From: Psammoneis japonica
Taxonomy: Eukaryota
NCBI GenBank assembly: GCA_008632985.1
Contig: QPGO01000074.1
Location: forward strand, 248,001 to 312,000
Direction: 5' to 3'
DNA length: 64,000 nucleotides
Shown here: in pieces, positions 5,051 to 61,360 of the stretch
How the letters are laid out: the number at the start of each line of letters is the position of its first letter
How positions within the stretch are numbered: position 1 is the first letter of the stretch
Notes under the pieces: model-generated
Databases searched by the model: none
What the model was told of the DNA's origin: nothing
What the model saw: only the letters and a program-made list of their open reading frames with translations
Position numbers and translations under genes: made by a program

Positions 5051-5271
5051 TGAAGTTCTCAAAAAAGTCTGAGAGCAAAAACGGCAAGGGGTATGACGTG
5101 GCATCGGAGGGAAAAAATGCCGGCAACTACTGCTGGGGCACACGGCACACCTTCAAGGTTGCAGCTGTTCGGTGTCAATTCAAATTGTTGAACACCACCA
5201 CAATGGCGCCCAGCCCCAGCGCCCATCTGCCGGAAGTTTACTGAATCTCTTTGAACCACAATTTGATCATC

Positions 5272-14690: not shown

Positions 14691-14864
14691 TCCAGCACTT
14701 TGCTCTCGGTTATTTCCGCATACGACCTCTTAATTCGATAAGGTTCTTACAAGGAACGTAGTATCAACTTTAATCTCTAGAAGAGATTCGTTTTACTAGC
14801 AACCTTTGCAAAGATTCTAGCATTGGTACATATTTTGCCAGCACATGTAATGTTCAATACGTTC

Positions 14865-16034: not shown

Positions 16035-16129
16035 TGTCAAACAATAAATAATAGTAAGACACTACGTATGTGCCAACGTCAGAGAATAATGCTCTCTACT
16101 AGAGGAGAGTTTGAAGACAAAAGCCAAAA

Positions 16130-26135: not shown

Positions 26136-27646
26136 AGAAGTTAGTTCGTATAGGATTAGATTCAGCACAAATTAAGACTATCAGGCTAGTATCACATGCA
26201 AGACCCTTTAGCCAGCCGACGAGCGAAAAAAGCGCAGAAGATGGTAGGTCGGTCGACGTAGGACGAAAAAGTGCGCAGAACAGAATGCTGTAGTATGTAT
26301 CATCTGTACCGGTACCAAGTGTTGTTACAGTAATTAGTAATTAGCCCTCTACTCTCCATCTACCGGTATTCTGCAGGCACTGAACACAGAGAGTCAGGAG
26401 TCGATCGAAGTGTTACACGTGGCATCATCGAGCTGGGACGGAAAGCCAGCCAGCATGCCAGTAAAATGCCGAATTGAGTCCTCATGGCTGAATTGAGTCC
26501 TCATCTGACCCACATGTTGAATCGATCGATAAAATGATGAAAAAACAAAGGAATTAAACTGGTTTTGTTGCTGTGACTATCTTCAATGGCAACTGCTTCT
26601 GACCATGTGCTTGGATTTGGGTGCCTCGCTGCATTCTTCGGGCTGCCCGTTGCCATCGAACATGGTCGTTTGCACTTTGAACGCCAAAACGAGATTCAAC
26701 GCATCTTTGCAAGACTTGCATTTTTTTTGTGAACACGCTCCTCACACAAAACCGTGTGATGCTTCATGGTTCTGAGACATGTTGAATTTCTGCTGGTGCT
26801 TGACACGCAGAAATGTTCACAGGGGGGGCCGAGTTGAGCCATTGCACGAAAAATGTGCAACTTTTGAGGCCAGATTTAAGCTGATCTCAAGCCCATTTCA
26901 CAACCAACTGTCATCAAAGAAGTCAATGAGAGATGATGAAAAGCTGGGAACTGGAAAGAAATGGTCTGTTTCAGTCAATGTGTGACAAAAAAAGCCTTTC
27001 AACATGAGGCAAAAATGAGAACTCAGCTCGGTTTTTTGCTGGCACTTTTGCTTTGAACCAAGCAATCGCTGTGCGTGGACATGCACCACTCTCCATCATG
27101 AGTCTGTCTGTCAACCAACATGGGCATGCCTTGCACACCCCACCCGGTCATGTCATGGATGCTCAGAGATTGCAGACAGATGGCGCGTCAGCTCCGGTGC
27201 ATGCGTGCCCTCACTCTGGAATGCTTTGTGCACAGTCTGCTTGCGTTGACCCCGCTTCCACAGCACATGGCTGGCCGTGCACACTGGCAACAGCCATTTG
27301 TGCAAAATTGCTGAAAATCACATTTCGAGGCTTGTCTCTGATGGTCAAGTGCATCAGCAAAGTGGTGTGTCTTAAATGATCTCATCACTTCAGACAACAA
27401 AGCAAACATTGAAACTCATCCTGCTCAGTTTGTGGAGTTTGATTTGCTCAGTGTGTGTTGTTAAAAAAAAACATTGGTTTTTGCTGTCACAAAATCTCTC
27501 ACTGCACCTTGGTTTCTGTGTTGAAATGATGATGATGCGTTTGGAGCTGCTTTCCCCTGGATGCAGCCACACGAGTCTGTTTTTGGAGTCATTTGCTGTT
27601 GACAGAAAACCTGAGCATCATCAATCAAGCAAGAAGATGACAAAAC

Positions 27647-30600
27647 ATGACTGAGTTTGAACAGCCAGAGGAGTTGTTGTTCCCGGATGATGATGACGAT
27701 GACTCAAGCTGTGAAAGCCACAGCAGCACACCATCCCATGATGGTCAAAGCAACTCATCTGATGAAAAATGCAGTGAGACTCCTGCAGAATGGTGTGAGA
27801 CCCCACTGCTTCATCCTGGTGACATTGAAGCACATTTCAGTGACGTTGAAAACACTTTTTTGGACAACTGCTTTGAAGAAATGGCACAGATCAAACAAAA
27901 CCTTGTGAACAAAGTGAGGATGTTGTGCACACAAGAAGCAGTGCTGTCAAATGCATGTGATGATCAAGATGAGGCAATGACATCAAATGAGATGTTCAGC
28001 GCACTGTTTGCTCTTCTGGCAGTGCATGAGTTCCTCGGTGTGGTGATGAGCACAAACACGCTGCAGAACAAATGATTTGTTCCAAATTTTGCAGAATTTC
28101 AAGCATTTGTTCGGATCAAATTGTGGCTCTGTTTCCACAACAAGGGGCCTGGAGACATGATTCAATTTTCAGAGGACCACACATCTGCCCAGAATGAAGT
28201 TGACAAATTGAGTGGCAGCACACCAACCAAAAAGCATGAGCACTTGCATCATCCAATGCAGAGTTTGGATGGCAATGACCAACCAAACCAAGAGCCATCA
28301 ATGTGCTGGCAACCTGTCTTTGTTTTGATTGGTCATTGGAAAATCTGTTTGAAATGACAGGCAAAGGCACATCAAGTGTTTGCTGTGTGGTGGGGAAGAC
28401 TCACCTGGTCATTGATGATGACAAGCTTGCATGCAGTCTTTTTTGTCAGCAAATCCATTGCTTGCAAGGAGCAAAGGAATGCAGTCATTTGGCCCGGCAC
28501 GCAATTTTGTCAACTCCCTTGCCACTGGTGCAGAGCTTTCTGGATGCATGATGCACCACTCAGAGGGTGGCATTCATGCCCTCAAGATGAATCTTCTCAC
28601 CACATCTGGACAGTGGAGCCCTGATTTGTTGCAGTTTCCAGACACAATGCCACCAGGAGATGGACGTGGGGATGACAGTGATGACTGTTGTGACCTCCTG
28701 GAAGCAACAGACTTAGACACAGCAAATGCTGTGAAGCGTGGGCTGAATGTGCCACTTGAGTTTGGGAAGACAGGACACAAGACGGGTCACGACAACGTGT
28801 TGTCATCAAGGGCAGACCTGCCATTGCAATTGGCACACCAAAAAAGTTGGAAGAACAACACCACATTTGACAGCTTGGTGAAATGGAACAGGCTGTGTTG
28901 CATTTCTGCAATCTGGCAGGCCATGACTGAGTGTGTCACATGTTGAGCACGAGTGTTTGTGAAGTGAGCCAGAGCCTGTTCTGTGTGTTTCCATGCCGCG
29001 GCACAAGTGGAAGCAAGTGTCTTGGGCCTCCGACACACTTCCAGGCAGTTTTGCATGGAAAGTCTCTTTGCATGGAAGTGTGAAAGCAAGGCTTGCCAGA
29101 GTGGTTTGTGTTGCGATTGCGGCGATTGACTTCTGCTCTGTCACACCACTTGTTGCCAAGGTTGAGGAGTGGACCATCTGCAACAGAAATTGACCTTCTT
29201 GAAACAATGTCTGTCTAAAATTGTGGGACGACCCACCCCCGATTGATCTCTCTCATTCAACAAAGTCAGTGTTGCATCTTGTGGAACTCCAAAAAGATGA
29301 GCTCACTCGCATTTCAAGGTTGCATGGTCATCCTGTGAGTGGGGGTGCCAAGGCTGTCTTGGCAGACAGGATTCACAAAGAACCAATTGAGCTTTTTGAG
29401 CCAACTGCTTTTGATTCGTTGACCAAGAGAACATTTCTGAAACCACTGCAGGACAAAGACAAGAGTGCCCACAAACTCAGATTGCTGAACAAAGAGAAAG
29501 TCTGGGGCGTGATTGGAAGAATCATTTCTGATCATTTTGAGTGTGAGTTTGTGGAGCTGAAAGAATGTGGGCTCACAAGTCGCAAACAAGCCAGGTGGTT
29601 GGCTGCATCACTCAACGGATGGATTGTGTGCAAATGTGGTGACAGCGGCAAAACCAATTCAAGTCTGAGCAACCAACTCCATGCTGGATTAGAGACAAAG
29701 TCACCCACAGGAAAGGACACAAGGAAGCTTGTTGAATGACTTTGAGATGAGTTTGGTGATTGTTCAACATTGAGTGCAGAGATGATCTTTTCAAGGCATT
29801 GGCTCACATGCCAGAGTGTCAAGTCCAAGTGTTGCATCATGTCATGGTTTGCAGCTTTGACAAAGTTCTGTTTGTGGTGGCTGACATGTGCAAACCAATG
29901 TTCTCAGTTGTGGTGTCTTTTTGAGAAGACCACAAACGCAACTGCGAGACTTTGTCATTTTGAACACATCAAAGGGACTTGGAGTGGACGCACATGACAG
30001 CATGGAACAACAAGTCAAGTCCCAAACATCATGTCCCTGAATTTAGAGAAGAGGTGGTGTCAAGCAATGTGCACAGCATTGATCATGACACCATTTTGTT
30101 TCAATGCACGACATGGTGCAAGCTGCTTCTGAAAATGAATGCGCCGGGAATGCTGCTGCCGGTGACGAAGTGCATTGTGTCATCCATTGCAGCTTTCTGG
30201 AACAAGGGAAAGGGAAGGATTGATGAAATGAGCCAGTGCTTGCTCCACATGATGTGGCACATTTTGTGTGGAATGCCAAAGCAGCTTTTGAGCATTCAAG
30301 AAATTGAAAAAAATGTCCTCAACGCGTTCTTGCTGAAGAAGCACTGTTGTCATTTGATGGGCTCCAGTCCTGGGTGGGGCTCCGTGTGACATTGGGCCTG
30401 TGGAATTCTGCGTGCAAGCTCCACAGTGCAAGAATTTAATTGATGGACATGCTCATCTTCAACATCAAATGAACGACCAAGTTTGTGGTGCAATTGTGCC
30501 TCTCAACACTTGACATTTTTGAAGATGCCTGCCCTGTGCCATTCTCAAGACATTTGAGAATGGCGCAGAAGAAACAAATGTCAAAAGTTTTTGGACGGAT

Positions 30601-31024
30601 TGCTCAACAAGTGCACCACAAAATGACACAAAATTTCACAAAAGTCACGCACCTTTCTACATGCACAACACATGGCATGATCCAAAAAACTGTCGATGTC
30701 ACAGTTCAGCAGTGCGAGGTCCCACCTGGAGCTGGAGCCCATCATTTCTTCCCAAGAGAAGCACTCAAAGGAACAACACTGTGTCAGACCAAGCAAGCAC
30801 TTGACAAAAGAGAAGGGTCTGTCACTGCTTTTTTGAAAGAGCTTGCCACCACATGTGTCACAGCTGCGCCAATGCCAGAGACACCTGCATCTCCAGTGAA
30901 AAAGAGACACCAGGAATCGAGCGAAGACAATGACGAAAATTTGGATGTGGGCCTTGACAACATTGACAGCAACAATGAAGATCCATCAGCGGGACAAACT
31001 GCCCAGCAGAGAAGAGAAGCTTGA
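27647..31024 (+). mobile_element. Degenerate piggyBac-like transposase gene with embedded SAP and YqaJ/lambda-exonuclease domains
   Basis: LVIDDDKL (~28405); SAP-like LQKDELTRISRLHGHPVSGGAKAVLADRI; YqaJ-like ECGL..WLAASLNGWIV..GLETKSP; WNKGKGRIDEMSQ resembles the piggyBac YN..KGGVD..DQ motif. Many stops and frameshifts. Confidence 0.55.
30357..30742 (-). mobile_element. MITE, copy 1 of 3
   Basis: TIR ATGGGCTCCAG/CTGGAGCCCAT; flanks CATTTG/CATTTC; reverse-complement homologue of 63096-63482. Confidence 0.85.
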
Positions 31025-32392
31025 GAGCACTGCAGAAGATTTTTGAGGTTTAAATTGGAGCACTTGCGGATTCGCAACATGGTCTGTCAGTCTGTCCACC
31101 CATCTGTCTGTCAATGGGGAAGTCTGACCTTCATCCAAGGGGCCAGGCCGGATTTTCAGCACGTGTTGTTGTGGAGAGGGCACATGTTAAAAAGTGTGCG
31201 CCAACCTGAGCAGACTGCAGAAGTTTGCATGGAAATGATTTTTGTGCATGTGGAAACATGCTGGAATCTCAAAATCTGTCTGAATTCTCTGAGAAAGTCT
31301 CTGGCAGCTGGAGAGAGCATTTGTGTTGGTGGAAGAGGGCAGTCCTGCGATGCACTGGAGAGCATCTGCAGGGTCATGTGCCTTGCCTCTGCTTGGTGCG
31401 AGGGCACACCCTCACCCGTGCTGCCACTCCGCCGGCAGCACCCACTTCATCAGTTGTCTCTTGCTCTCCCCGTGAGAAAGAAGAGACTGCCCCACTGGCT
31501 GTTCTCAAGATTGCTTTTTGCAGGACTGAACAACCAGCATTGATCATGACAAAGCTGGCATCGCTGTTGGCCAAGTCACCACCCACTGCATTGTGGAGAA
31601 GGCACTTGACAATTTTGACCTTCAGCCCCTTGATGCCTCGCACACTGTGGAGCATCACAAGCTTGTGCTGAGGCACCATGGCCACACGCCATTTTTGCAC
31701 ACTTTGCAATGCAAGAGTTTGAAGGAGCAAGGGAGCTCTTGGCCCAGGACTCTGTTGTTGAAAGTTGCCTGTGCATTGTCCATGCCGCATGCCACCAATT
31801 GCAAGGGGGGTGCCATGTGCCACTCCACTGCGAGATTCTTTTGTTGGATGAGCTCCCATGTGAAAAGCTGCTTTGATGGGCTGGAGCTGTCCAGACTGGC
31901 CTCCTGTGATTTCTTGTTGGGCTGGGCCCATTCAGGACATCCCCTGGCCGCTGCTTGTGTTGCCATCCTGGCAGGCCTCCTGGTTTGATGCAATGGCACC
32001 ACCCCAGGTGTCCACCTGGCATCTTGATGTTTTGCTCTTTGAGCTGCCATTGTGGAGGTGTTTTGAAGTTTCAGAGGTTTTTGCTGCACTGTGTTTTGAC
32101 GGCTCTTTTCTCTGTGTTGTCCATTTTCTTTTGACAGCCATGACTCTCGCCACTGCCTTTTTGCACCAGAACTTCTTCAACCCTGTTTCACCAGGCTTTT
32201 AAGGATGGATCGATGTTCAGCGGTCAATTTTGTTTGGAGCTCGTAAACATTTAAAAATGACCCGGATTTTTTGTGCTGTCAATGCACGCGTTCGCCAAAA
32301 AAAATTCAGCGACAGGTCGAAAATTACAAAATCACGAGCCATTTAAAAAAATGCCGCTAAACATCGATCAAGCCTCAATGCCACTGGCGTGT

Positions 32393-32423
<31 letters not shown>

Positions 32424-32425
32424 GG

Positions 32426-32615
32426 NNNNNNNNNNNNNNNNNNNNNNNNNNNNNNNNNNNNNNNNNNNNNNNNNNNNNNNNNNNNNNNNNNNNNNNNNNN
32501 NNNNNNNNNNNNNNNNNNNNNNNNNNNNNNNNNNNNNNNNNNNNNNNNNNNNNNNNNNNNNNNNNNNNNNNNNNNNNNNNNNNNNNNNNNNNNNNNNNNN
32601 NNNNNNNNNNNNNNN
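32426..32615. other. Assembly gap (N run) preceded by (GT)n and poly-G
   Basis: 190 N bases. Confidence 0.99.
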
Positions 32616-32650
32616 TTGTGCATTGAACCGAGGCAACACAAGCACAAGCC

Positions 32651-35131
32651 ATGATGAGTGATGCAAGCAATCACGATGGATGGCTCTCTCAGATCAAGGA
32701 GGAAATCCAAGATGGAATGGGAGAGGAGTGGGATGACGAGTGCTGGACGGAATTCATTCGTGAAGTGGCGTGGTGGCTTGTCCATGAACAAGGCAGAACT
32801 AGAAATGAGATGATTAAAGCCGCCGTGGGTCTCATTGCGTGTGGTGCAAAAACAAAGGAGGATCTGTTTCTGGTTGCTGGGAACCCTCCTGACGATGAAA
32901 AATTGTCCAGAAAGCTTGAGGCGAAAGGCGTGTCTCTCGTCATCTGCGCTGTGTTGTTCAACGAGTGCGTCCATGTGCAACAGATTGGCAAGCCTGAACT
33001 GTTGCTTGCACTTCTGTCCCAAACTGATGCTTCTTGTCAGTGGTGCAAGAAAACATGTTTCGTTGTTAGATGATTTTATTCAACCTTTCTCATTTTCAAT
33101 TTTGGTTTGTTCTTAGACTTTCATGTTGAAGGCTTGTCGAGTGCCATTGAGGGACTTGCACTTGAGCCCAAGCAAGAGCTCCACAATCCGACCAAGGATT
33201 GTAGCACAACATCTGTGCCAGATTTGTTCATGCCTGTAAAGAGCAACAAGCCCAGGGACATGTTGCTGAATCGCCTTTTGGAATTAGAAGGAAAAGGAGA
33301 TGGAAAACAAACACCTGATGTCGCTCCCTTTCTTGCCATTGTTCAATCGAGTGGTTGCGGGAAGACCCGATCAGTTCTGGAGCTAGCCAAGGAACAAAGA
33401 GTTGTGCATTTACTTTGTTCCAACATCAAGGGAGGTCTGCAGTCTCCAAAGGTTGTCACTGATTTTATCAAAAACATCAAAAAGGCCGACACAACCAAAT
33501 TTCGTGAACGAAGAGCTGCCAGATTTCTTCAATGTGTCAAGAAGTGCTCCGGCAAGTGCAACACAGGACAAGAGTCATCCTCCGCTCAATTTAAGGACGG
33601 GAGATTTGCCAATTTCTACGATGAGCTTGCAAAAGTTTATGAAGAAAACCGCACCCCTCCCACTTCCCCCATGCAGAATGGATGCTCGGATTCGAAAAAT
33701 GACTCGTCCTCTTCCGACCGAGAGAATTTGCCATTGGTTGTTGTGTTCGACGAGGCATTGGGTCTGACAGAATCTGATGCGCTCAACTGCGACTCGCCCC
33801 ATCGGTGCATCCGTCGGCTCCTACGTTTGAATGATTTGATCGGGCTGTTCCTCAACATTTCGGGAAAGCTGCATCATTTTGCACCGGAAAATTCCTCATC
33901 GGATAGAATCGCGGGAATTGGCAACTTCGCAGGACCTGTGTTTGAGACAGACACTTTTGACCAGTTCAAAGATCACCTTTTCTTTCTTGGTTGTCCTTTG
34001 TGGAAAATGCAATGGGAGTGTTGTTTGGACAAAGACTGTGGAAAGTTGGTTGAACATGCATGCAGCAAATTGATTCCAAGCAAAACCAAAGGTGAGGATG
34101 CAAGTTGGTTGTGCGTCCCTTTTGTTTGTCGATTTGGGTTGGAACCGAAAAAGTCTCTAGCGGAAAAGATGGTTGCCGACCACATGGCAATGCTGGTGAA
34201 AGTGAGCAAAGACCGCTCAACTGTTGTTGCAAAGTGCAAGTCGGAACCAATTCTCGCGGAAGCTGCAGCACGCATTGCTTGTTGCGAGAAATGTGAAGGC
34301 ATTACGGTGAAAAGAGTGCTGAGAAATGTGAACGCGAATCTAGAAAACAGCATTTTGAAATGTGATGTTGGGGATTGTGGAGAAGTCGCCGCTGCTGCTT
34401 GGCTTGGTTTCACTCTCGATGGTGTCCGCATGATGAAGAATTGCAATGCAGAAACGCTCAATCTGTCATGTGAGGTTGACGTGTTTCAGTTCCTCAAAGT
34501 CTTGGCACCAGATTTGTCGATGTCGCCTCACGAACATCAACTGCAGGGATGGAAGATAAACTTCACACATTTCAATCGGTTGAGCTTTGCGCCCGATCAG
34601 AGCACACTTAAAATTTGCTGGGATCGTCATGCAGCGTTGTACTTGCCGGCCGGCGAAGAAGGCATTGACATGTTGATCGCTTTGTTCAAGGAAGACACTG
34701 TGCAAAACTTTGAGGAATTTGCAACTCTGCAAGTGCCAGTCAAGAATTGCAAAAACAACTTGAGTGAGACGGCTTTGAATGACCTGTTTCAGAAGCTGGA
34801 TGTTCGGTGCTGCTCCCCTTGAACCAAGCTTGCTGATGAACCTTTTTCAGTTGCCTTGGTCATGCAAGTTGGTGAAGGGGACATGGTCAATTTATGCAAA
34901 CTTGCTCAACTTGGAAGAATGACTTGTGCTGGTGCGTGTCACAGCCAAAGTGTCCAATTGCAGTTGGCCTGCACTGTGTCTGGAGATTGTTGCAAAGAAA
35001 TTCAGATGGTGGCAGGCAAATCCGTGGACAACAAGGACTTCATTAACTCGTCACACTCATTTCAAAATGGTGAATTTCCATGGTTCGTAGATGAGCAGTT
35101 TCATGATGTCTCAACGGTTGACTCACCATGA
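32651..35131 (+). pseudogene. Crinkler-like (header + P-loop NTPase + restriction-endonuclease fold) gene, hypermutated
   Basis: Walker A QSSGCGKTR, Walker B VVVFDEA, SEPILAEAA, INFTHF, REase-like GIDMLI...LQVPVKN; only 3 Tyr in 571 aa with excess Cys; premature stop at 34820. Confidence 0.7.
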
Positions 35132-36305
35132 AAAAGCAAGCAATTGCAGTGTTTGTTGCTGACAATCATCGTTTACATTCAGAGCGCGGTCCAGAAGGGT
35201 GTCTTCAATTGCATTGTGCTGTGTCTCCCAATTCACAAGTGAGCAACCCTGATCAATGTTCCAATCAAATCCCGTGATCAAGCAATTGGCTGTTCTCATG
35301 TTTTCGTTGATCCCAGTGTCTCACTGTGGACCCATTCAAGCTTGTTGTTTTTTTTTTCTGTGAAACTGGATTTCTCAGTTGCATTTTTTGAGGTGCCGTG
35401 TGACTGAGACAAATCCTCAGCATTCATTTCCCAACATTGGAGTGCTGTGCCCTTGCTCTTTGCACAGCACTTTCTGGGTCTGTTCCATCCCACTCAGAAT
35501 CCCCCATGCCAAGTCCAAGCTTCTTTTTGAGATGAGACTGGATTGACAACTTCTTCACAATGGAGTTTTGCACAACCTGTCCAGCCCATGCTTCTGCAAG
35601 CCAAGTCGTGGACACAACAAAGACAAGACCACCTTTGTCCACACACTGTTGCAAGCACCATGTTTGCCACTGTCATGAACAGTCAACAAGAAGACTGGGT
35701 GACACCCACAATTGACTCTCTTTCCCAAATTTCTCGAGCATGAATGAGTGCACAAGTGATTTTCAAGGGGATGCTTTTGCAGAGCCCTTGCATCTCTGCA
35801 TGGAATCAACCATGGGAAACAAGTGCACATCTGGCTGGGCTGCTTTTTGTTGTGGGAGAAGTGGCCTGTTCTAGCTCCAGGTGATGTGCTGAGGTGCACC
35901 ATCCATCCTTTGCCAATTTTTGCATTTGGTGCAATGAACTCCTTCAAAATTGATTTTCTCCAAAGTCAAAGGGCAAGTGCACACAAAACCTTTTTTTTGT
36001 GCACACTGACCTTTCAATTTTCGAAAAAATCAAAGTTGAAGGAGTTCATTGTGCCAAAGGTGATTTTCGGCCAGTGTCCCATTCTGCGTGAAAAGTGCTT
36101 TCTGCATGCATGCTTTTTTCATTTTTTGGAGGTCATGCTTTTGGTCCGCTTCAACTCAACTGACATCCAAGAACACCCCCTGTTTCCACAGACACCAGAC
36201 AGTCATTTCACTGAGCATGCCATGAAATGATGTCCTCTTGATTTCTCATCCGTCTCATCCACCATCCCTCTCAGCACACATTTTTCACTCAAATCTCCAA
36301 TGCAT

Positions 36306-39300
36306 CATGGTGAAGAAGAGGAAGCAAGCTGGCATTGGCCATCAACACAAGTCAGGAACTGGCTGCAGCAAAAACAAAAAGCATCGTGGTGAAGGGTTGT
36401 CCTTTCCAAGACAACCTGTCCCCTCTCAAATCAATGCTGAGGGAGCAGCAGCCACTCCCTCCAACCTCATCACTGGCAATGATGCCATCACTCCCTCCAT
36501 TGTTGCTCCCACCAACCAAATTCCTGTCAACCTGGCCCCCTCCACAGAAGACCCCACTTGTTGTGAAAGGTTGTCCTTTCCAAGACAACCCGCCCCCTCC
36601 CAAGTCAATGCCAAAGGAGTGGCAGCCACTCCCTTTGACCTTGCCTCTGACAATGCCACAGTCACTCCCTCCGCTGCTTCTGCCAACCAAACTCCTGTGA
36701 ATCTGAGCCCCTCCACAGAATGCCCCACCTGCAATCATCCACACACCTTTGATGCAACCTGCAAAAATCTCCAGCAAGCACTTTGTTGTGCAGCAGTCAA
36801 AATCAGAGAAGCCACATTTTCTTGCACTGACACTCCAGAGCAACAAGTCTGCGCCTTCATGCACACATTGGAGTTTCCTGAGTTGGCTTTCCATGTTGAG
36901 GCTTGTGATTTGATGTTGCCAAAAACAAAGGCTGCCACCTTGCAAATGACCAAGCAGCCAGGCAAAATGTGGGAATGTGCCAATGACAAAAGCAATGGTC
37001 AATGCCACACTGATGACAAAAATCCTTTTGTCCATTTGGCAGCAACTGCAATCTCCAGCTCTCCAGAAAAATCTGCCAATGAGCCCAAGTTCAATTTCAG
37101 GAACTGCACCAATGCACTCAGCATCAACAAACAAGCTGTTTGTTGACAAATGAGGAAGAGAAAGACTTCCAGAGCATCCTTGATTGAGGACAAAGAAGCC
37201 ATCATGTGGTCTTCAGTGCAACCCCATCATCATCCTCACAAAGTTTCCCCCCAGATTGCAAAGCCTTTGTGCATTGGTCGTCAAATCATCCTGACATGGT
37301 GCAGTCTCTCAACTCAAGAGACACGATGATCCTGAAAACTCTGAGAATCATGCCAGCGCACCATTGACAAATTGGAGAATCTAATTTCCTGTCATCAAGA
37401 GGAAGCGTTTGGCTCCAATTCCAATCACCTTCATCCCAAAGCTTGAGGTGCAGCTTCTGCTGTCATTTGTGGCAATGCCAATGGTCAGGATCATCCTCAT
37501 TGGAAATGCATTCTGGCTGAATGCAAGGATTGCCCATCTTGTCCAGCTCCAATGTTGGAACAGAATGAAAGTCCCAGTGTGCCCAATGTCAAGTTTCAAA
37601 GGCATTTGACTGCAAAATGTTGTTCCAAGCATGGCATGTTTTTGAAAGCATGTCCTGTTTGTGAGGCAGACCCAGAGGGGAACAAGTGTGCAAAAGTCAA
37701 ACACAAGACATTGTTGACAAGGTTCTGCAAGCCAATCGGGGTCTTCACAAAAGAACATTGCACTCCAAGTTTAAGAAGCTTCATTGCCACCTTCCCCACA
37801 TGGCCATTCTGGGGGGGGGAAATCATTGCATGGACATGTGTTGCAAAGCATTTGAGTCACTGCCCAACAGCAATTTCACATCTCATGACTGCTCCAAGCA
37901 TCAGAAGGCAGAGTTCAACAAGCAAGTTCAGGGGGATCATCATGGCAACTCCCAATCACTGTCAATTGAAGGCAGAGTTTGTGATGTGATGATTGACAAT
38001 GAGGCTGAGAAAACCTGTCATGCATTTCTCTCTGATCTTTCTGAGCAAGATGCCACCACAACTCATGCTCACTTGAAAAAGTTTGTCACATGGTCTAAAA
38101 AAAATCGCAATCTGCGTCAGGCATGGCTTGTGATTTGGGATCACACAGGTGGTTGTGCCAAACAGCATCAACGTGCTTTGGCACTGTGCTTGTTGTTGGT
38201 TTTTGCCCACAAATGCAAAGTTGTGTTTGACCGTGCCATTGGAGCACCTGGACATGGCAAAGGAGAGGTTGGTGGAATTGGAGCCTGCATTGAATCACTC
38301 ATGTGTCAAGAAATGCAGCCCACAACTGTTGCAGGAGTCAATGATGAGAATGGGAAAATCAGAGCTGATGATTTGGTCATGGATGACAACAATGTTGTGG
38401 TGGCACACAGTTGTGCTTGGGAATGTTTGAAAATGCTCAAAAAGAAAAAGAGTGCTCTTGGTGCAGCTGGTGACAGGAAACATGCCAAGAGGGAATCCCT
38501 TCAAAAGTTGAAAGTGCGGGTGTGTCATCTGCAAGACCTGGATGAAGTCAATGGTCAGTTGACAAAAGTCAAGTTGCTGGGATTGGCACAACTCGGCATG
38601 CACCATTTGCATTGGCACCCGCGTGCCATTTTTGATTTGAACCCATGTTTCCCACTGGTTGGGTCACCATGCATTGCATTCCTTGCACTTGTGAAGGCTG
38701 CCTGGATCAGCTCAGATGACCTTGTGTGGACAATGTCAGTCCAGCCGAGCAGCCTCAACATGCAGGTGGCAACCGAGCTTGCAAACTTTGGCCCATCTTT
38801 GAGGGACTGAATGATTGGCAAGTTTGTCAGGTGATTCAAACAATTGAGAGTGACTTTTTGACTGACAGAATTGCAGAAGAAATTTTTGCAAACAGCCATG
38901 CCGCATTGTCTTGTGAATCTGATGAAGGCTTCTGTCTGCTGCAATGGGATGAACTGCCCCACAGAGCACAGGAAAATGTGGTGGGGGGTGAGTTTGATCC
39001 ACCCACAACTGTCAAAGCCGGTGAATGGATGTGCAAGGGAGTGCATCTGAGCACTGTTCCAAGGGCCAGAGGATGGTGCACTCCCAGAGACACTGGTGAT
39101 TGTCCAACCAGAGTGTTGCTCAAGCAAATTGTGGTTGCAAACACCAAGCTCAATGACCCATCAGCCTCTCTGCAACTTCCAAGGACGTGCAACAGGAGCT
39201 GGGCTTCACTTCTAAATCCATGTCATTTGACCGATGACAAGCACAAAGCCATTCTTGATGCAATCCACCAGCGCAATTCCCCAGATTGTTTTGAGGAGGA

Positions 39301-39364
39301 GAAGGAGGATGGCAAAACTGATGAGCCAGAGGAGTGCAATGACAATGAGGAGGAGGACAGGTGA
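36306..39364 (+). mobile_element. Degenerate DDE transposase, Sola-like
   Basis: DHTGGCAKQH and APGHGKGEVGG match the DGC..QY / GHGKG..DG signature; broken by stops and frameshifts; ~174-bp tandem duplication at 36390-36730. Confidence 0.6.
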
Positions 39365-42109
39365 TGAGTTTGAGGAACAAAATGGCAATGGACAAACAAA
39401 CAAACAATGTGATTGAAAATTTGCATCGTGCAGCTGGGTGGACCTTCCAACACATGCACACATTTCCTGAGTCACAACTTGCAAGCTTTCCTTTTGCCAA
39501 CCAACAGCTGCTTCACCACCTTCAGAAGTTCAAACTGGTGCACCGTGAGCACTTGTTTCTGGAGCTTGTTTGCCACATGTTTTGCCCTGTGTTCCTCATT
39601 TCCAAGACACCAACTCAAGCACTTGATGTCACTTGCTGGCAATGCAAAATGACAACTGGGCAGAGTCAAAGATCCACCCACAATGCAAGGCAATGCTGCA
39701 GCCATCACCCCTGCTCCCAAGGAAATTGTTCAATCCAAACTTCAGCAAAACTTCATCTTTGAATTTGTGGATGGGAACTTCCCCTTCAAACAGCTGCTCA
39801 GCATGTTCCTTGAAAATGACACAGGATTGTTGTCAGCTTTGTTTTGGTTGGCAGATGTTTCAATGTGAGATGCAATGCAATCTCTCATTTCCAGGTTGCC
39901 AGCACGGTGAAGAACACTGGCCAGGGACAAAAACATGTGAATGTCTTTGTTTCCTTGCAAGAATTTCACAGGGGGGGGGGCTGCTCATTGGCAAGTTCAT
40001 CTCTGTTGATGACAACATGTTGCCTTCCAGAAAAGTGCAACAACCTTGTTCTGGCTTCAGATCTTTCAAATCTTTTCCAAACATTTGGAGGAAACCACAT
40101 CTTGAAGTTGCACTCAGCCCAATCCAGGGGGCAATGCATTGCGTGGTTGCCCTGCAGTGTGCAACCAACAAAATCAGCCCCCCGTGCAAAACATGGAAGA
40201 TTCTTGATCTCATCCTGACTCAACCTCTCAAGTTTTGCAATTTGTGGTGGACTGCAAATTGCACTCACCTTGCAATCAATCTCTTTCTTGCATTTTGATT
40301 TAAATTGTGGGCAATGTTGGGTTTGTGTTTGATGCATCCAATGAGGTCCACACACGTGGGCATGGCACAGCTGCTGGGTTCATTGGCTGTGTCAGTGAGC
40401 CAGTCTTCATGCAACATGACACCTTGGTTTGCTTCAGCAAAACCACCAAACAAGTGAGGGACATGTCCTTCCAAATTGCCTGGCCATGGTTTCCTCTTGC
40501 TCCAGGTGCTTGGATCAATCCAAATCAATTTTGTGACCTTCAACATCACTTGAGCATCTTCATGTGCTTGCTCCAGATTCTCCCTTTCTCTTTGGTGGAG
40601 CAAAGTGTGTGGCAACCTTGAGAGCTGGCACACCTGGTGAGCACTTTGAGTGGTGCATCGGTGGGAAGGTTGACAATGCAGGAATTGTCCTCCATGTCAT
40701 TGTCCAATTCTGCAGGATCCCTGTCACAACACTCATTGTGACAAACATGTTTGCCATTCTGGCCCACATCAGACTTCTTCAACTTGTTGTGGTTGACACC
40801 AGAGCAACACAGCTTTGTGCCCACCTTTTGCCTCCATGAGAAACTTCTGATTTAAGAGACCAACAGTTGTGTGTTTGACACCACAGTCCTTGAGCAGGCA
40901 AAACAGGACACCTTGTCTCACAACAAACTTGACATGCAGTCCTCTCTCAATGCCAACATTTCAAATTTTTTCCTGTCTTCCAACAAGGAGTCAATTTTCA
41001 AGTGACTTTTGCTCACAATCTTGCCAAATGGCAGCAACGCAGCATTTTTTAGATTTTGTTTTGACTCTTCAGGGTTGCACTTCTCCAAAATTTTAATGCA
41101 GACCTTGTTCTCCTCACACACTTCTTGCTTGGCAATGCCAAAATGTGCAATGCAGCAACAAGGCTGTCACTTGCATCAAGTGGTTCTGCCCAAAAAGCGC
41201 TGTCATCACTGAGCTCACATGTGAGGTTGCCACACTCTGGAAGAATGAGACAATGCCTGAACAATTGAAGAGCATGTTGGGGCAATCAGCTCCTTTGCAT
41301 GCAGTGCAACAGTGTTGCCTCCATTGTTTTTCATGAGATGACACCAACCCCAGTGCTTGCAGACATCCTCAAAGTTTGTGCGCTCATCGACGGTGTCTGT
41401 GATGTCCTCAAAACCCAACACACCAATGCAATGAGGCGCAAGTGTCCTCTGACAAAATGAAGATGTGCCTCACTTTTCTTGCAACAGCCAAACAAAACAG
41501 CTTGAACATGTCCAATCAAAGAAGGACAAAAACCACAATTTGATGGTGTGATCAACTGTTGCTCTTTGCCAGTCCCATGTGTCCAAATCTTCAAGTCTTT
41601 CACATGGATGCAATCAACAAGCACACCAATTCCATTCTTGACATGGCACAACAAAACAGCAGCAATGTGTTCCTTCTCCTTTGCGGCCTCCCTGATTGAT
41701 GTTCCTGGTGGCTTCACAACCAAAATCAACATGTGCTTGTGCTTCTCACCAACACATTGTCTGACTTGGGATCAATTCTCAGGGTGAAACTTTTCAACAA
41801 ACCAACCAGCAACAACGGTTTGGAACAGAGTTCATGATTTGCTGCTTTTGAATGAGGTGAAAGAGAGGGCCAGTCTTCTTGGTTTTAGGATCTTCCATGG
41901 CACAGCAGCCCAACTCTGCAAGAGCTTCTGGGTGCATGTGGGGATCAACTGCAGCTTGGAGAGGTTGGTGGTGCCAAGTTTTGGAGCCCAGCTTCTTGCA
42001 ATGTTTGTTCATTGAATCAACAAACATCAGGACAAAAGGGGGCAGCTTCAAATGGTGGGAAGAAACGTTTGCATGAAGGGCACTGCCACCAACAGAAGAA
42101 TCTGCCAGT

Positions 42110-42440
42110 CCCAGTGCAATTGTGCTGATTGTGCACTTCTGTTTGCATGACAAATGTGCTCCAGAGAGGGGGGCAATGTCAGTCACCACAGATGTGATGC
42201 AGATGAACAGAGGCAGCCTCTGAGGCAGTTCCAGATGCTTGACAGCACCAAGCAGCAAGCGTCACAGTGAACAATCCAAAACAGCATGCAGCAGCCGGCA
42301 CACTGATCAATGCACTTCTGTTTGTGTGACAAATGCACTCCAGAGCAGGGGCCAACATCAGTTGCACAAAAGTGACATGGACAAAGAGAGGCAGCCTCTG
42401 AGGCAGCTCCAGATGCTTGACAGCACCAAACAGCAAGCAC
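42110..42440. repeat. Imperfect tandem duplication, period ~178 bp
   Basis: gaggcagcctctgaggcag.tccagatgcttgacagcaccaa.cagcaagc at ~42210 and ~42388. Confidence 0.8.
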
Positions 42441-43473
42441 CACAGCAAGCAAACCAAAACAAGTCTGAGATGGTGGCAACTGCCATTTGGAAACGGTTGA
42501 GGCAAATGCACAAGTTTGGTGGAAATTTGGAGAAAAGGAGTGCAAAGCAACCAAAAAATGAGGTGTGCAAAGAAACTTGAAAAAAGCACATGTGTGGTGT
42601 CTCAAGTGAACCACAACATGCAAAATTGACAGCGACCAATTCCAAATGACAAGATGCAAGGAAATGGTGTTGTTCACAATGACAAAGACTGCACAGAGCC
42701 ACAGCTGCATTGTGACAACAATGGCATGATTTTCAAAGGCAAGGAACAGACAGTTCCATGCAACCACAAGTGCAAACAGGGGGTTGCAGAGCAGTGACAG
42801 TGGTGTGCTGTGTCATGGCTGACTCTGTGCACAGGGCAGTTTTGCACGTGGACCACATGTGTGCATGGAAGTCAGCATTGATCAACGCATTGCCAGAAAA
42901 ACATTGAATGCCAACTGACACCATTCTTCTTGTGATGAGTTAAATGCTTTGGTTGCTGGAGACATGTGCTCCTTGTCACAAATGCAGCATGTCATCAAAA
43001 CACAACACACTCACAAAAGGCTGAAAAGTGTGAGCTCAGCCAGGTGGAGACAAAATTGTCTGGTGCTGAAAGCTGCACAGAAATTTGCACTTGATGGGTT
43101 GTGCATCACCTGGAGCTGGAACAGGCCAAGTGCCAGTACATGAAAGCCATGGTGTTCATAAGATGGTCAAGAACCACGGGCACTGCAGGCAAAGTCATGC
43201 ATTTTGGCTGCAGTGACAAGAGTCTCAAACAACCTCCACAAAGCAAGGTGTGGAGGACAGAGGAAAGAGCTTTGGGTGGCTGTGAAAAGCTGAAGCATGA
43301 CCTCAATTTCCACAAGAGGCAAATGCTGAATTCCAAAAATGACAAGCTGCACATGCTGGAGGAGCTGGGTTGTTGGCATCATGGCCATGCATGTGACGCA
43401 ATGAGCAGAAATGGCAATCTTTGTGCTGAAGTTCCTTGTCAAGGGTCAGTGTGCCATGGCACCAAAAATGGCA

Positions 43474-43474
43474 A

Positions 43475-43541
<67 letters not shown>
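43474..43541 (+). repeat. (GAAA)16 microsatellite
   Basis: Perfect tetranucleotide run. Confidence 0.97.
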
Positions 43542-43735
43542 TTGCTCCTGTCAATCTCAGCAACCCCCCAAATTGCTCTCTTTCCATCCCAGAGACCCAA
43601 AAAGATGAAACAAACACTGCCACAAGCAACCAAACCCCGCTGAAAAATCATGGCATCATGCAAATCATTGCCCCAGAAAATGAACCTGGAAATAAACCTG
43701 GGCTGCCAAAGCTGCAAGTGGAGGACCTCATCCTG

Positions 43736-44063
43736 ATGCGCTCCAGCTCTGCTTGGGTGGGGCCTTGCACTGCACTGCTGAACTGTGACATCAAGAGTTT
43801 TTTGGATTGTGCCGCATGTCGCACATGCAGAAGGCTGCATGTGTGAGAATGAAAATGGGTTGGGTGTGTTCTTTTTAATGTCTGAAGAATGTGCCCAGAC
43901 AAACTGTTAATTGCGCACTTCAAGATTGAAGGAGGAGACATGGTGCGTTCATAAAATTGCCTCTTTTTCTGTTGGCGATCATTTCACAAATTGCTGCGGA
44001 GCTCGCACGTGGAATTCTCCAGGCCCAATGTCACACGGAGTCCCACCCAGGACTGGAACCCAC
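43736..44063 (+). mobile_element. MITE, copy 2 of 3 (divergent interior)
   Basis: Ends ATGCGCTCCAG / CTGGAACCCAC; flanks ATCCTG/CTCCTG; shares gcactgctgaactgtgacatc and gcggagctcgcacgt.gaattct..ggcccaatgtcacacggagtcccacc with 63096-63482. Confidence 0.8.
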
Positions 44064-52200: not shown

Positions 52201-53060
52201 CCAAATGCAAAACAATGGGCAAGAGCAAGTCTTTCTCACAGTCAAAGTTGGCAGGGAGGTTGGTGCAGGTGTCGGAGTGCCATTTGTTGGCCATCATCTT
52301 GCCAAAATCGTGCTCCTCCAAAGGAAAAAACTTCTGAAAGCATGACTGAATCGACTTGTTCACATTGAGATTGTGCTCATTGTCGAAGATTGAGTGAGAA
52401 AGCAAGTCTCGCAACATGTCCACCATGCAAAAGCAAATGACTTCTCATCCACCAACAATGTGTGTGTCTGGCTTGGGCATGTGCACCTTCTTGCTGACGT
52501 TCTTCACAAGTGTGTCTCATCTGAGACATTGGGAACAGTCAAATTTCCTCTTCTTGTGGCATTGTCAAAGCAATGCAAGCAACTGCCCGCAAAATTGACG
52601 AGTTGCACCAGAGTTGTCACACAGAGCAATCAGCTCCAACGAAGCTTCCTCCTCAACTGAAAAGGTTGGTGCCCCATCAGCAGGTGGATCATGATCTGGA
52701 CACAAATCATTTCTGGTGGGAGGGACAGTGGGTGGATCTGGAGGTGACATGGATTCATCAAAGAAATCCTCTTCAAGCGGAGGTGAAATGAGAGCCGCAC
52801 TGCCAGGGAACATTTTGCAGGGAGAGTGATCATAATCGTCATCATCCTTGTCCTCATCTTTGTCATCATCCTCGTCCTCCACATCCTCAGGTGAGGCCAG
52901 TGGCTCCAGGTCTTCTTCTGGTGGAAAACTGGGGGGGTCTTCCTCTCCGTTGAAGTCCAAACTTGGATTTGATGAGTCTTTCTTGGAGGCGGAAGAGGCT
53001 TGAGAAGCATGTTGCCAATCGTGGACCAAAACAAAAAAGGCCAGTGACAGCTTGTTCAAT
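49240..53060 (-). mobile_element. Degenerate Plavaka-like transposase
   Basis: LLLPIVLHLDQTGTD..PLEPWLFS, VFAAMADDHLHFWEAG and C-terminal LRASPQCH..GPWFDWAEV resemble Plavaka-type motifs once His/Cys are read as Tyr. Confidence 0.6.
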
Positions 53061-58500: not shown

Positions 58501-58850
58501 TGGCAGGCTGGAGCTGGGGTGAGACTGAGACAGAGTGTCTGGCGCTTTTTCTGGCAAGCCTCTTGTTGGCACGCAGTGCAGCTGGAGCAGTTGCACTCAT
58601 CTTGTGTCTGTTCTTGGTTGGCACCATTGTCAGCCATGGAAGCATCAGCATGTTCTGCACCTTGTCTGTTCTCATCAGAAACTGGGTTAAAATTTTCTGC
58701 AGGTTCCCACTCAGGATGTGCTGAGATGTCAACACCCCGAACCCCAGTCAGAACACCATCTTGGCCAATTTCATCTTTGCAAAAAATGGACTTGACTCTC
58801 AACTGATCACAATCAGGTGCATTTTTTAACAACACATTTGCAGCAATGCA
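55520..58850 (-). mobile_element. Degenerate RAG1/Transib/Chapaev-like transposase
   Basis: FPFQVMTGQESQET, PCFCPCC, VPCMLHME; GLTNCTHMLGSGHIK...CSQQDWEHLN parallels RAG1 ITNYFHKTLAH...WASEGNESGN. Confidence 0.65.
56803..57248 (+). mobile_element. 446-bp TRIM-like LTR element with an internal tRNA-like segment
   Basis: Direct repeats 56803-56912 and 57140-57248, both TG...CA; PPT GGGGAGGAG at 57131-57139; flanks TTTC/CTTC; interrupts the transposase coding sequence. Confidence 0.8.
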
Positions 58851-58884
58851 CATGATCAGTTAAGAGTCAAGTCCATTTTTGCAA
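58777..58884. repeat. Inverted repeat, ~32-bp arms with 43-bp spacer
   Basis: ttgcaaaaaatggacttgactctcaactgatca ... tgatcagttaagagtcaagtccatttttgcaa. Confidence 0.9.
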
Positions 58885-59094
58885 CAATTGTGAGAAACTG
58901 GCAGTTTCAGTGCAAAAATGTGCAGATTCTGCAGACGACCAAGTGTGGCATGCATGTCAAGCCACACTCTGTGTCAGCACTGCATCAGCAACTTGAGCCT
59001 TTTTGTGTGCACTTCCTTGTGTCAGAATGAAATGGCAATGTTTGTGCTCCACACAAGTCCTGCAGAATCATGCACAACAGAAATCCACAGAGCG

Positions 59095-59641
59095 CAAGCT
59101 TTTGCACAGTGGAGCCAAAAGAGCTGCAAAGTTGGCTGGCGAATCTGGCGACTGGAGCTGTGCTTCAAGGGAAATTTGAAACTTTCTTTGCAGGATGTGT
59201 GGCAGTTGCTGGTGATGAACGTGCCTGATTTTTGGCGCAAGCTGTCTGAGATTGAGGAATCATGCACCACTGGCGAGGATGACAACATGAGTTCTTGTGT
59301 TGCAGCCGAGAGTGTGGCCTTCAACGCCCATCTCGCCGGCATTTGCCCTCCATGAATGACAGAAAGTCAGGGGAATTCTTTTCCTCCTCAGCCAATTGTT
59401 GACGCGGCCCACGTGTTGTGTGATGGTGTGACAAGTGAACCTCCTGCATTGGTCTGCACTGCAAAAGACTCTGGCGGAGGTCAGTTGCCAAAACAGAAAT
59501 CCCTGGTGGTTGCTGTGGCTGTTTTGACATCTGTCCACATCACAATTGGGAGTTTCTCCATGAAAAGTTCACACCATTGCCATCCTTGGGGTCATCACAA
59601 AAAATGTTGGAACTGAACGAGAAAATCCGCAATGTGGACGA
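59095..59641 (+). pseudogene. Partial, hypermutated duplicate of the glucosidase II beta gene (matches 25167-25693)
   Basis: Colinear nucleotide alignment to the intact gene; in-frame stop (CGA>TGA) and small indels. Confidence 0.95.
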
Positions 59642-60172
59642 CATGCTGCAGCATGCCTCGCCACTGGACAACACGGCGAGACCGTGCGTGAGCCTCTTGT
59701 ACATGGCAACGCAGCATTGTCAACACGCACCTGGGAAGCACGACCACAGGAGGGCGTGGCTCTAGGTCTTGGGCAATTCCAGAAGGATGCTAAGAGAGCA
59801 TCCGTGTGAAGCACACTGGCCCGTCGTCTGGCCCACGATGGCAGCGTGATTCCACACGATGACATCACTCGTGCACAGCGCGTGATGGCGTGATTCGCAC
59901 GATCCACAATGCAAACGCACGATCGATTTGATGCGATCCAAATGCGAACGAACAGGGATTTGGCAAGATTCCCTGTTCACACGATCCCATTTTCTCTACT
60001 CTAAACCAGCTCAAAATTTTCACAACGACAAAGTCGCAACACATCTTCTTTTTCAGCGCCTGGCACATGCACAGGGCACAGCAATGTCACTCCCACATGT
60101 TGTGCGAGGTGACGAAATCTACAGAAACGAAACTACGAAATGTTGGTGGGACCGACAAATCTTAAAACGACC

Positions 60173-61189
60173 ATGAAGAAGCGGGTTGAGCCGCCGATTC
60201 CGTTCGCGTGGCCGGAGAAGAAAGAGCTGCAGCAGGGCGAGCACCAGACGTTCAAGCTGCGCAACAACCCTGCTGATCCGGATGGTCCAACACACGAGAT
60301 GGGCATTCCGTGCCTTTCTGCGGCTACATGCGAGACACTCCCAATCTTTCTGCGCAACGTGGATTGCGTGCACGAAGGACAAAACATCACGACCGGGCCA
60401 GCGAAATTTGCCCTTGTGCGTGACCCACTGCAGGGCGATGCTCTGACGTCATTTGACAATGCCGCTGACAAGCAGGCATCCCAAACCAATGCCACGTGCG
60501 CAGCATGTGTCGCGAAGCTAAAGGAAAGCATCTTCCCACATGGGGCGGTGCCATTGCAGAAGCATCATCTGAGGCGCTTCATGCACAAGCCCGCAGAGGT
60601 TTCTGCTCGTGACTGCGTCGTGAGGGCTGTTGAAATTAACGGCTGTGTCTCTCAGTTTCCACCCGTGACGGAGGATGGAGAAGCACCGGCACCATCACCT
60701 GATGACGAACCATGCGACATGTTCGAGTGCGGTGTGCCGAACGCATGGCAGAAGTTCATGATGCTGCAGAATTTTGACCCGTTGGCGCATGCTGTCGCCG
60801 AATTTGTGCAGTTCTGCGAGCGCATCGAGCAGGTCGAGCTTGCTGAAGGTAACCAGGACCAACATGCTAAGGTTCCACGCAAGCGGGGACGTAGAACGGA
60901 CAATTCTGAGTCGTTGATCATGACCCAACGGAACACCCAGAAGTCATGCATGCCACACGGGACCAACTGTGGACATCATACAGAGGATTGCCGTCAGCTC
61001 AAGCACCACATGAAACGTGTCAAGACTGGACATTCCAGTAACGGAGGCAGCAAACCCAACACAAAACCTCGGAATGAGGAAGATGTTGACACTCTCATCG
61101 GATCAAAGGTCGAGGAGTTCTTTGCCAACGCTCAGAAAAAGCGCAAGGCACGCGAGGAGGAGCTCAATCACTTCGCGACCTCAACTTAA
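60173..61189 (+). pseudogene. gag: gag of the gypsy element (open frame, no Tyr codons)
   Basis: LQGDALTSF, IFP...LQKHHLRR, GVPNAWQ, zinc-knuckle-like CMPHGTNCGHHTEDC. Confidence 0.8.
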
Positions 61190-61360
61190 GCGATTCCGAA
61201 GATTCGGACACTTGAGAAGGGGGCCGACACGACACAGGTAGTTTTAACACAGATGAATGCACAAATGAACAACTGAATTACCATCGTACACGTGTTGTAG
61301 GCCAATCCCGCAAACGAGTTAAAAAGACTCATCTTGCTCCAATCTTGTTTACAGCTATGA

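Follow-up and report, generated by a model that had tools for sequence, protein, structure and literature searches.

Probable TpA-directed hypermutation of mobile and copied DNA, followed by CpG decay, in a 64-kb window of the diatom Psammoneis japonica

Hardly any natural case is known of targeted A:T>G:C editing of chromosomal DNA, and the sole report of it, a 2026 preprint, comes from another algal lineage, the chlorarachniophyte Bigelowiella natans. In mutation-accumulation lines of this organism, 230 of the 231 mutations reported within two integrated viral regions were A>G or T>C, at TpA, and the mutation rate there was ~1000-fold over background, in some lines only (Mettrop et al., bioRxiv 10.64898/2026.01.13.699255). 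The same preprint describes genome-wide clusters of windows that are poor in TpA and rich in CpA plus TpG, and it proposes an ADAT2-like deaminase. The present analysis concerns a 64,000-nucleotide stretch of Psammoneis japonica DNA (assembly GCA_008632985.1, contig QPGO01000074.1, positions 248,001 to 312,000 of the forward strand), referred to below as the window and numbered from its first letter, in which a main domain of degenerate mobile DNA (26551..61200, no strand assigned) and three smaller islands have lost almost all of their TpA. Judged by sequence, the TpA-restricted hypermutation of B. natans is the best match for this signature. No description of TpA-erasing hypermutation in diatoms was found in the literature; the kind of process was first described in 2026, and the diatom lineage and the saturated state are what is new here.

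The likeness to B. natans begins with the changes themselves, which in both cases are A:T>G:C transitions confined to TpA that yield TpG or CpA on either strand. It extends to the targets, since the preprint also finds foreign or mobile DNA affected (there, nucleocytoplasmic large DNA virus (NCLDV) and virophage sequences) and the rest of the genome spared, and to the footprint, which in both takes the form of clustered TpA-poor, CpA+TpG-rich windows; among the TpA-poor coding sequences of B. natans, domains of transposable-element type are reported to be enriched. There are also several differences. Chlorarachniophytes belong to another supergroup, whereas a sugar transporter encoded in the window has only diatoms among its best named relatives. 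The targets here are transposon remnants, an element resembling a miniature inverted-repeat transposable element (MITE) and a gene copy, while the targets described in the preprint are giant-virus insertions. The observed/expected ratio (o/e) of TA is 0.03-0.06 here, against a Rho of 0.45 given for the NCLDV region. CpG decay follows the loss of TpA here, and is not reported in the available part of the preprint. Finally, the process was measured in real time in B. natans, according to the preprint, and is deduced from sequence here.

Other known systems are more distant. Fungi, Neurospora among them, have repeat-induced point mutation (RIP), which is also a dinucleotide-specific transition hypermutation; it inactivates repeated or mobile DNA, leaves genes alone and has a footprint that can be used as an index. 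RIP acts mainly at CpA, and it raises TpA and A+T content. It is described as a C>T process (PMC7296669), whereas the changes here are A:T>G:C at TpA, with TpA reduced to an o/e of 0.05 and G+C unchanged at 0.46-0.48. In addition, RIP mutates both duplicates, while here the parent gene of a mutated copy is spared (17 TA versus 0 in the copy), although selection on the parent could mask mutation there. The AID/APOBEC and ADAR enzymes of animals resemble the present case as deaminases that drive hypermutation of parasitic nucleic acids. However, APOBEC changes C to U in single-stranded DNA, in TC or CC contexts, rather than A (or T) in TpA, and ADAR acts on double-stranded RNA, whereas the substrate here behaves as chromosomal DNA. 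Lastly, the decay of methylated CpG, which turns CG into TG or CA in repeats, accounts for the CpG half of the present signature; it gives no account of the TpA loss, which it trails here.

TA-poor blocks were called by a count-based segmentation (at most 2 TA per 200 bp), and the dinucleotide profile was computed in 500-bp windows. The main domain contains 126 TA against 2335 +/- 35 expected (200 shuffles, minimum 2228) and 653 CG against 1976 +/- 30 expected from shuffles, so that TA o/e is 0.05, CG o/e 0.33 and the o/e of TG and of CA ~1.75. It comprises two called blocks, 26551-33100 (TA o/e 0.054, CG o/e 0.37) and 33601-61200 (0.051 and 0.32). The islands, likewise without an assigned strand, lie at 3401..5450 (TA o/e 0.09, CG o/e 0.43), where the right margin (5001-5450) is poor in TA while its CpG is close to normal; at 12051..14700 (0.07 and 0.25), ending 165 bp from a glycosyltransferase family 2 (GT2) open reading frame (ORF); and at 16101..18650 (0.056 and 0.32), between the GT2 and sugar-transporter genes. 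Two or fewer TA are found in 764 of 796 200-bp windows inside the blocks and in 16 of 390 in the remainder of the window, where TA o/e is 0.59 and CG o/e 0.96.

Relative to the flanks, the blocks have TA at x0.09, CG at x0.34, TG at x1.48 and CA at x1.46, and the remaining 12 dinucleotides stay at x0.91-1.11; ApT is unaffected. Within the blocks TG and CA reach o/e values of 1.6-1.8, and G+C is 0.46-0.51. The books nearly balance: over 26551-61200 the surplus of TG+CA over flank level is 2342, and the deficit of TA and CG is 1261 + 1235 = 2496. G+C remains steady (~47%) because the A:T>G:C and G:C>A:T changes are near equal in number. The block edges are 50-100 bp wide. At 14700, TA per 50 bp jumps from 0-1 to 5-6, and at the left edge of the main domain it drops from 3-7 to 0 between 26350 and 26600. 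An earlier note on this DNA, written from the letters alone, had described TpA and CpG erasure with TG/CA saturation over ~35 kb, and the shuffle and flank counts bear this out. Its block coordinates agree with the segmentation to ~300 bp, the sharp edges it noticed are confirmed, and the sliding TpA/CpG o/e plot that it suggested, run here, sets the blocks strongly apart from the rest of the window.

The direction of change can be read from a copied fragment of a host gene. A segment of the glucosidase II beta gene (25167..25693, plus strand), intact with 17 TA, 36 CG and an open ORF, recurs as a 547-bp hypermutated copy at 59095..59641 (plus strand; 81.7% identity in a self-comparison). With the parent segment taken as the near-ancestral state, all 17 parental TA have been lost from the copy, becoming TG in 13 cases, CA in 3 and CG in 1. 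The 36 parental CG fared less uniformly, with 10 retained, 13 changed to TG, 10 to CA and 3 to something else. Counted per strand, A>G changes affect 18 of 34 A residues that follow T (53%), against 9/80 after A, 3/70 after C and 4/75 after G, and C>T changes affect 25 of 72 C residues before G, against 0/69 before A, 2/58 before C and 4/59 before T. A second pair is provided by the MITE-like element, 375 bp long with terminal inverted repeats. One copy, inserted in a gypsy pol gene (63102..63476, minus strand), is unerased, with 10 TA and 23 CG (TA o/e 0.39, CG o/e 1.11); an older, mutated copy inside the main domain (30363..30736, plus strand; 83% identity to 63476-63102) has 2 TA and 8 CG, and the element is therefore not immune. 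These comparisons show the direction of change to be from TA to TG or CA.

The element that carries the MITE-like insert provides a view of the process part-way. It occupies 59650-64000+ and is of the Ty3/gypsy type, with a gag ORF (7 homologues) followed by pol with Pfam matches to RVT_1, RT_RNaseH and RT_RNaseH_2. Relatives of this pol carry rve, and pol here resumes beyond the insert; the 3' end falls outside the window, and for this reason no long terminal repeats were identified. All parts lie on the plus strand. The 5' part (59650..61200), which includes the gag ORF at 60113-61186, has TA o/e 0.21 and CG o/e 0.99. The protease and N-terminal reverse transcriptase (RT) part that adjoins it (61201..62400) is nearly pristine (0.94 and 1.07), the C-terminal RT and RNase H part (62401..63101) is TA-erased again (0.25 and 1.03), and the stretch of pol after the insert (63477..64000) is TA-depleted (0.34 and 0.92). 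This young element is ~75% TA-erased, with CpG intact. The earlier note had pictured a signature imposed on a chromatin domain, and the alternation, within one element, of kilobase tracts that are erased with others that are pristine is not what a uniform domain mark would predict.

The protein encoded by pol follows the same mosaic. Tyrosine (Tyr) was followed at 21 columns, each with Tyr in at least 60% of 20 relatives. In residues 86-330, Tyr is kept in 7 of 11 columns and replaced by Cys or His in 2, while in residues 361-578 Cys or His stands in 8 of 10, and the catalytic YxDD reads HLDD. Beyond the insert, the 'LTYK' and 'ELxYVKG' of the relatives have become LTCK and ELRCVKG. The unerased MITE-like element must have been inserted after its pol tract was mutated. 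Within 61201-62400, one Tyr column that is invariant in the relatives (20/20) reads Cys (TGT, 62276) beside a kept Tyr (TAT, 62279), which looks like a sporadic single event.

The gypsy tracts also bear on the order of the two losses. TpA loss without CpG loss is found in these tracts, at 33.5-34.5 kb and in the margin of the first island; in contrast, no 500-bp window in the 64 kb has CG o/e <0.5 together with TA o/e >0.4. Within the erased blocks the two ratios correlate (Spearman 0.55, p 9e-8, 81 windows). They form a gradient that begins with the gypsy tracts (TA 0.21-0.34, CG 0.92-1.03), passes to a 582-residue ORF (0.15, 0.75), then to the outer blocks (0.05-0.06, 0.34-0.36), and ends with the core at 35.5-48 kb (0.03, 0.12). 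These compositions show two separate processes, an early and fast erasure of TpA and a slow and later decay of CpG. The treatment of both losses as a single signature in the earlier note is not borne out, the gypsy tracts being TA-erased with CpG intact.

CpG decay is expected at such a locus because diatom repeats are CpG-methylated; in Cyclotella cryptica, methylated repeat regions of up to 30 kb are reported (PMC5124317). It also occurs alone elsewhere, as three metagenomic relatives of the gypsy element (loci L015, L017 and L066) are CpG-poor (CG o/e 0.07-0.19) with normal TA (o/e 0.62-0.67). The metagenomic control as a whole, drawn from 575 related gypsy loci of which the best 80 were kept, and biased to intact copies, has TA o/e values of 0.56-1.18 (median 0.75), with none TA-erased; the gypsy family is therefore not TA-free by nature.

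Tandem repeats inside the domain show that related sequences have diverged where they lie. The 178-bp units at 42132..42461 differ at 28 columns; dinucleotide swaps account for 15 of these, among them 7 CA/TG double swaps. Units of ~175 bp at 36386..36731 differ at 36 columns, with 6 CA/TG double swaps (no strand assigned to either repeat). A CA/TG double swap is the expected product of an ancestral TA or CG that was resolved independently on different strands, and the mutation therefore arose in place, after insertion.

Sequencing contigs were also compared, by aligning those of two runs (X1 and X2) to 24000-42000. Contigs of run X1 agreed with pieces of the domain over 2522 bp and 2058 bp without a single difference, at a word depth of 61-72 as compared to 61.3 for the adjoining gene; run X2 matched only 24000-26130 and a few short pieces, and its lack of cover over most of the domain carries no meaning. 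Other contigs of the two runs differ from the window at 206 places, of which 40 were listed, and 30 of these 40 exchange one of TA, CG, TG and CA for another: the window has TG or CA against CG in 14, TG or CA against TA in 8 and TA against TG in 2, and 3 are CA/TG doubles (6 rows). The run X1 bins that hold the MITE-like copy of the domain have a word depth of ~24,800-36,400, versus ~61 for single-copy DNA, which may correspond to hundreds of copies; MITE-like fragments are also present at 43734-44062.

The TA that survive are not a random sample. Of the 112 found in deeply erased DNA, 37 (33%) are in TTAA, compared to 8.2% of the 22,981 TA in the related gypsy loci, and 94 are in TTA or TAA, compared to 45%. 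ATAT, ATAC/GTAT and ATAG/CTAT are 5- to 12-fold under-represented among the survivors. The same bias is seen within the gypsy element: 38 TA survive in its erased tracts, 28 of them of the TTA/TAA type, versus 34 of 83 TA in the pristine part (Fisher p 0.0009). By these counts, TA in TTA or TAA is protected about 3-fold. A first estimate, made with the window's own control, fits an additive model in which a single flanking base on each strand matters, at position -2 (A>G>C>T) or +1 (T>C>G>A), and a ~3-fold range of rates.

With regard to strand, Cys and His replacements alternate along gag, pol and a 381-residue ORF, both strands being affected within short distances. The overdispersion of TG versus CA is modestly above control (chi-square per degree of freedom 1.69 vs 1.24 at 400 bp), and an analysis of TG and CA runs in the saturated domain gave no clear sign of strand-coordinated events.

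The coding consequences are drastic for Tyr, which makes up 0-0.8% of the residues of mutated ORFs, compared to 2.4-7.3% in the host genes and 2.0-3.8% in homologues. In gag, Tyr stands in at least 3 of the 7 homologues at 8 columns, and here all 8 have His (4) or Cys (4). Deep in the domain lies a transposase-like ORF of 381 residues (37665..38807, plus strand) with 340 homologues at E<=0.001 and 0 Tyr; its 10 majority-Tyr columns, defined on 18 relatives, read Cys in 4, His in 3, Leu in 2 and Val in 1, and conserved Arg frequently reads His, Cys or Gln. The genetic code is such that a change of TA to TG or CA makes no in-frame stop codon, which explains how the 381- and 582-residue frames could remain open in dead DNA. 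The claims of the earlier note that conserved Tyr positions read Cys or His, and that Tyr is removed without the addition of stops, thus hold up well: the first was confirmed in three ORFs (gag, part of pol and the 381-residue ORF), and the second is correct and follows from the code.

The family names given in that note fared less well. Gypsy gag is upheld by its homologues, while piggyBac, Sola, Plavaka, RAG1-like/Transib and Crinkler gained no significant domain match. Among the 150 longest ORFs of the domain (at least 97 residues, of 175 with at least 90), none scored above the curated Pfam cutoff, only sub-threshold chance matches (E<=0.05) being found, and four domain frames read through their stops with X had no Pfam match at E<=0.1. 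Heavy mutation may hide the true family membership of these ORFs. For the family of the 381-residue ORF, none of the ten top homologues scanned had a Pfam domain, the profile had 0 matches among PDB sequences at E<=1, and the predicted structure of the ORF itself (mean predicted local distance difference test score 57) had no Foldseek match at E<=0.001. The weak Foldseek matches (E 0.009-0.07) are mostly to RNase H-like folds (Argonaute PIWI, RNase HI, NurA and terminase nuclease), and such a fold is a lead only, drawn from a predicted model. The 582-residue ORF (33074..34819, plus strand; TA o/e 0.15, CG o/e 0.75; Tyr 0.7%, Cys 4.8%) is open, with no Pfam match and 0 PDB sequence matches at E<=1. 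One atlas cluster matched it (score 0.89), with Crinkler in 19% of its members, which makes 'Crinkler-like' a weak lead. By eye, its translation has a P-loop-like GCGKT motif and an hhhhDE motif, and the frame may be either a live gene or a stop-free relic.

Host genes present the opposite picture, as every ORF with a host-type Pfam domain is located in TA-normal DNA. These encode a methyltransferase (1-825), a thioredoxin (5585-6067), a kinase (6627-9932), an SCO4226-like protein (10925-11500), the GT2 glycosyltransferase (14865-16061), the sugar transporter (18862-20355), SPC22 (22610-23092) and, with PRKCSH domains, glucosidase II beta (23823-26135). The best named relatives of the sugar transporter (Thalassiosira, Cyclotella, Fragilaria, Nitzschia, Seminavis and others) are 42-50% identical to it; its top match is 68% identical, and dinoflagellate names appear only lower among the matches. 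An atlas search with this transporter ranked plant clusters first and gave no guide to the taxon. The erasure is thus confined to mobile or foreign DNA and the genes are spared, with the caveat that the gypsy element is only partly erased.

The GT2 ORF is hemmed in by TA-erased islands, at distances of 40 bp (16061-16101) and 165 bp (14700-14865) from its ends, which means that its promoter side borders on mutated DNA or lies within it. The main domain also contains an assembly gap of 190 N (32426-32615), which comes after a (GT)n run and a G run, and a perfect (AAAG)17 microsatellite (43474-43541); a lone N is located at 13565.

Taken together, the data from the window very probably reflect a TpA-specific, post-insertion hypermutation of mobile and copied DNA at the DNA level, followed by decay of CpG. 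In this model, a TpA on either strand would have its A:T pair turned into G:C and so become TpG or CpA. The mutation would act in kilobase tracts that end within ~100 bp of host genes, and it would run nearly to completion, with a loss of ~91% of the TA that the flank level would predict. Methylated CpG would then be converted to TpG or CpA by a second and slower process. Tyr codons (TAY) would become Cys (TGY) or His (CAY), so that catalytic motifs are destroyed without new stops. A role in genome defence, as the earlier note had suggested, is what we infer.

The chemistry is less certain. An adenine deamination to inosine by a polynucleotide deaminase of the ADAT2/TadA type is the most likely candidate, with a chance that falls somewhat short of even. 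Enzymes of this type have a tRNA substrate, A34, which is located after the invariant U33.

Several points weigh against the hypermutation model or parts of it. Because TA is palindromic, deamination of A is indistinguishable from a T-directed change on the other strand. Run X1 may be the assembly's own sample, with a platform that is not on record, and so does not count as independent support. The flank preference is drawn from surviving TA and assumed ancestral contexts, and the strand pattern is mixed, as the gene copy has 13 TG versus 3 CA (binomial p 0.02). The abrupt end at genes could in part be due to selection against mutated genes rather than to targeting. Finally, one search pattern used for the metagenomic control held Tyr and only the best 80 loci were kept, which biases this control to intact copies, and other hosts may still have TpA erasure.

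The palindrome gives the most durable rival its opening, as two chemistries are inseparable by sequence at TA. In this rival, which appears unlikely, the thymine of TpA would be modified in silenced repeats, for example oxidised by a TET/JBP dioxygenase to 5-hydroxymethyluracil (5hmU), and then misread or misrepaired as C; the resulting T>C would show as A>G when read from the opposite strand. We know of no evidence that 5hmU is strongly mutagenic towards C, which counts against this route. It gains from a report that a TET/JBP enzyme produces 5hmU and silences transposons in dinoflagellates (PMC11572971), and from older work, cited in PMC11071213, that places 5hmU preferentially in TA and TC contexts. 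However, a Breviolum study found no sequence preference of 5hmU, and a TC-context signal is missing here, TC and GA being at x0.94 and x0.92 of the flanks.

A RIP-like trigger, in which repeat homology, and neither chromatin nor the identity of an element, would summon a mutator with TpA chemistry, is rather improbable. The mutated DNA does consist of repeats, copies and tandem units, and run X1 has many paralogous contigs at identities of at least 90%. Against this, the parent of the gene copy keeps 17 TA and an open ORF (selection could explain this). The MITE-like element, in spite of its high depth, retains 10 TA in its young copy. In addition, the hypermutated NCLDV region of B. natans is described as single-copy.

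Hyperediting of RNA by an ADAR-like A-to-I activity, fixed through reverse transcription and reinsertion, would explain why retroelements are among the targets, and the U-A context resembles the 5'-neighbour preference of ADAR quoted by Mettrop et al. This explanation is very improbable and, on the evidence of the sequence, close to refuted. A transposase-like ORF, a MITE-like copy, a host-gene fragment and non-coding DNA are all equally erased; tandem units have diverged in place; erased and pristine tracts alternate within one element; and both strands are affected, with Cys and His alternating.

An artefact of sequencing or assembly, in which modified repeat DNA is miscalled so that TA and CG are read as TG or CA, has an equally slight chance. 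Modified bases can give systematic basecalling errors on some platforms, and the only run that contains the stretch may be the assembly's own sample, both of which count in favor of this explanation. However, separately built k-mer contigs match exactly and at normal depth, and each ancestral TA has become a fixed TG or CA that differs between paralogous copies. The gradient from young to old sequences and the coherence at the codon level fit real mutation, and the preprint relied on Illumina reads when it measured the same process in B. natans.

An intrinsic composition or codon usage of the elements, for which the shared signature itself speaks and nothing further, is refuted by Tyr-normal homologues (2.0-3.8% Tyr), by TA-normal relatives (o/e of at least 0.56 in 80 of the 80 best related gypsy loci), by the mosaic element (0.94 adjoining 0.21-0.25) and by the host-gene copy with the same signature; tandem units that diverged in place add to the support for the earlier note, which had also argued against element-specific codon usage.

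If the hypermutation model is correct, a more speculative extension can be considered, in which diatoms (Stramenopila) and chlorarachniophytes (Rhizaria) would share an old defence based on TpA editing. The deaminase would derive from the tRNA A34 enzyme and be directed to newly silenced mobile DNA, with a preference for A-T-A / T-A-T and a sparing of TTAA, and its action, in tracts of a kilobase scale, would precede, and be independent of, CpG decay. It would disable enzymes by turning Tyr into Cys or His with no stop codons made. Such a system would stand beside RIP and APOBEC as their eukaryote-wide counterpart, one so far overlooked. This extension is doubtful at present.

From the window come a parent/copy pair by which the direction of change is fixed, a part-way element in which the loss of TpA precedes that of CpG, and a first estimate of the flanking-base preference. 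Confirmation in diatoms would mean that the B. natans process is not the oddity of one species. It would also be a pointer to an adenine editor of DNA that occurs in nature and has a defined TpA context and flank preference, of relevance to genome defence and to the enzymology of base editing. For diatom genomes, TA o/e would then be a simple index with which to map silenced mobile DNA and to date insertions, and the erasure would account for the failure of domain-based annotation to catch diatom transposon remnants.

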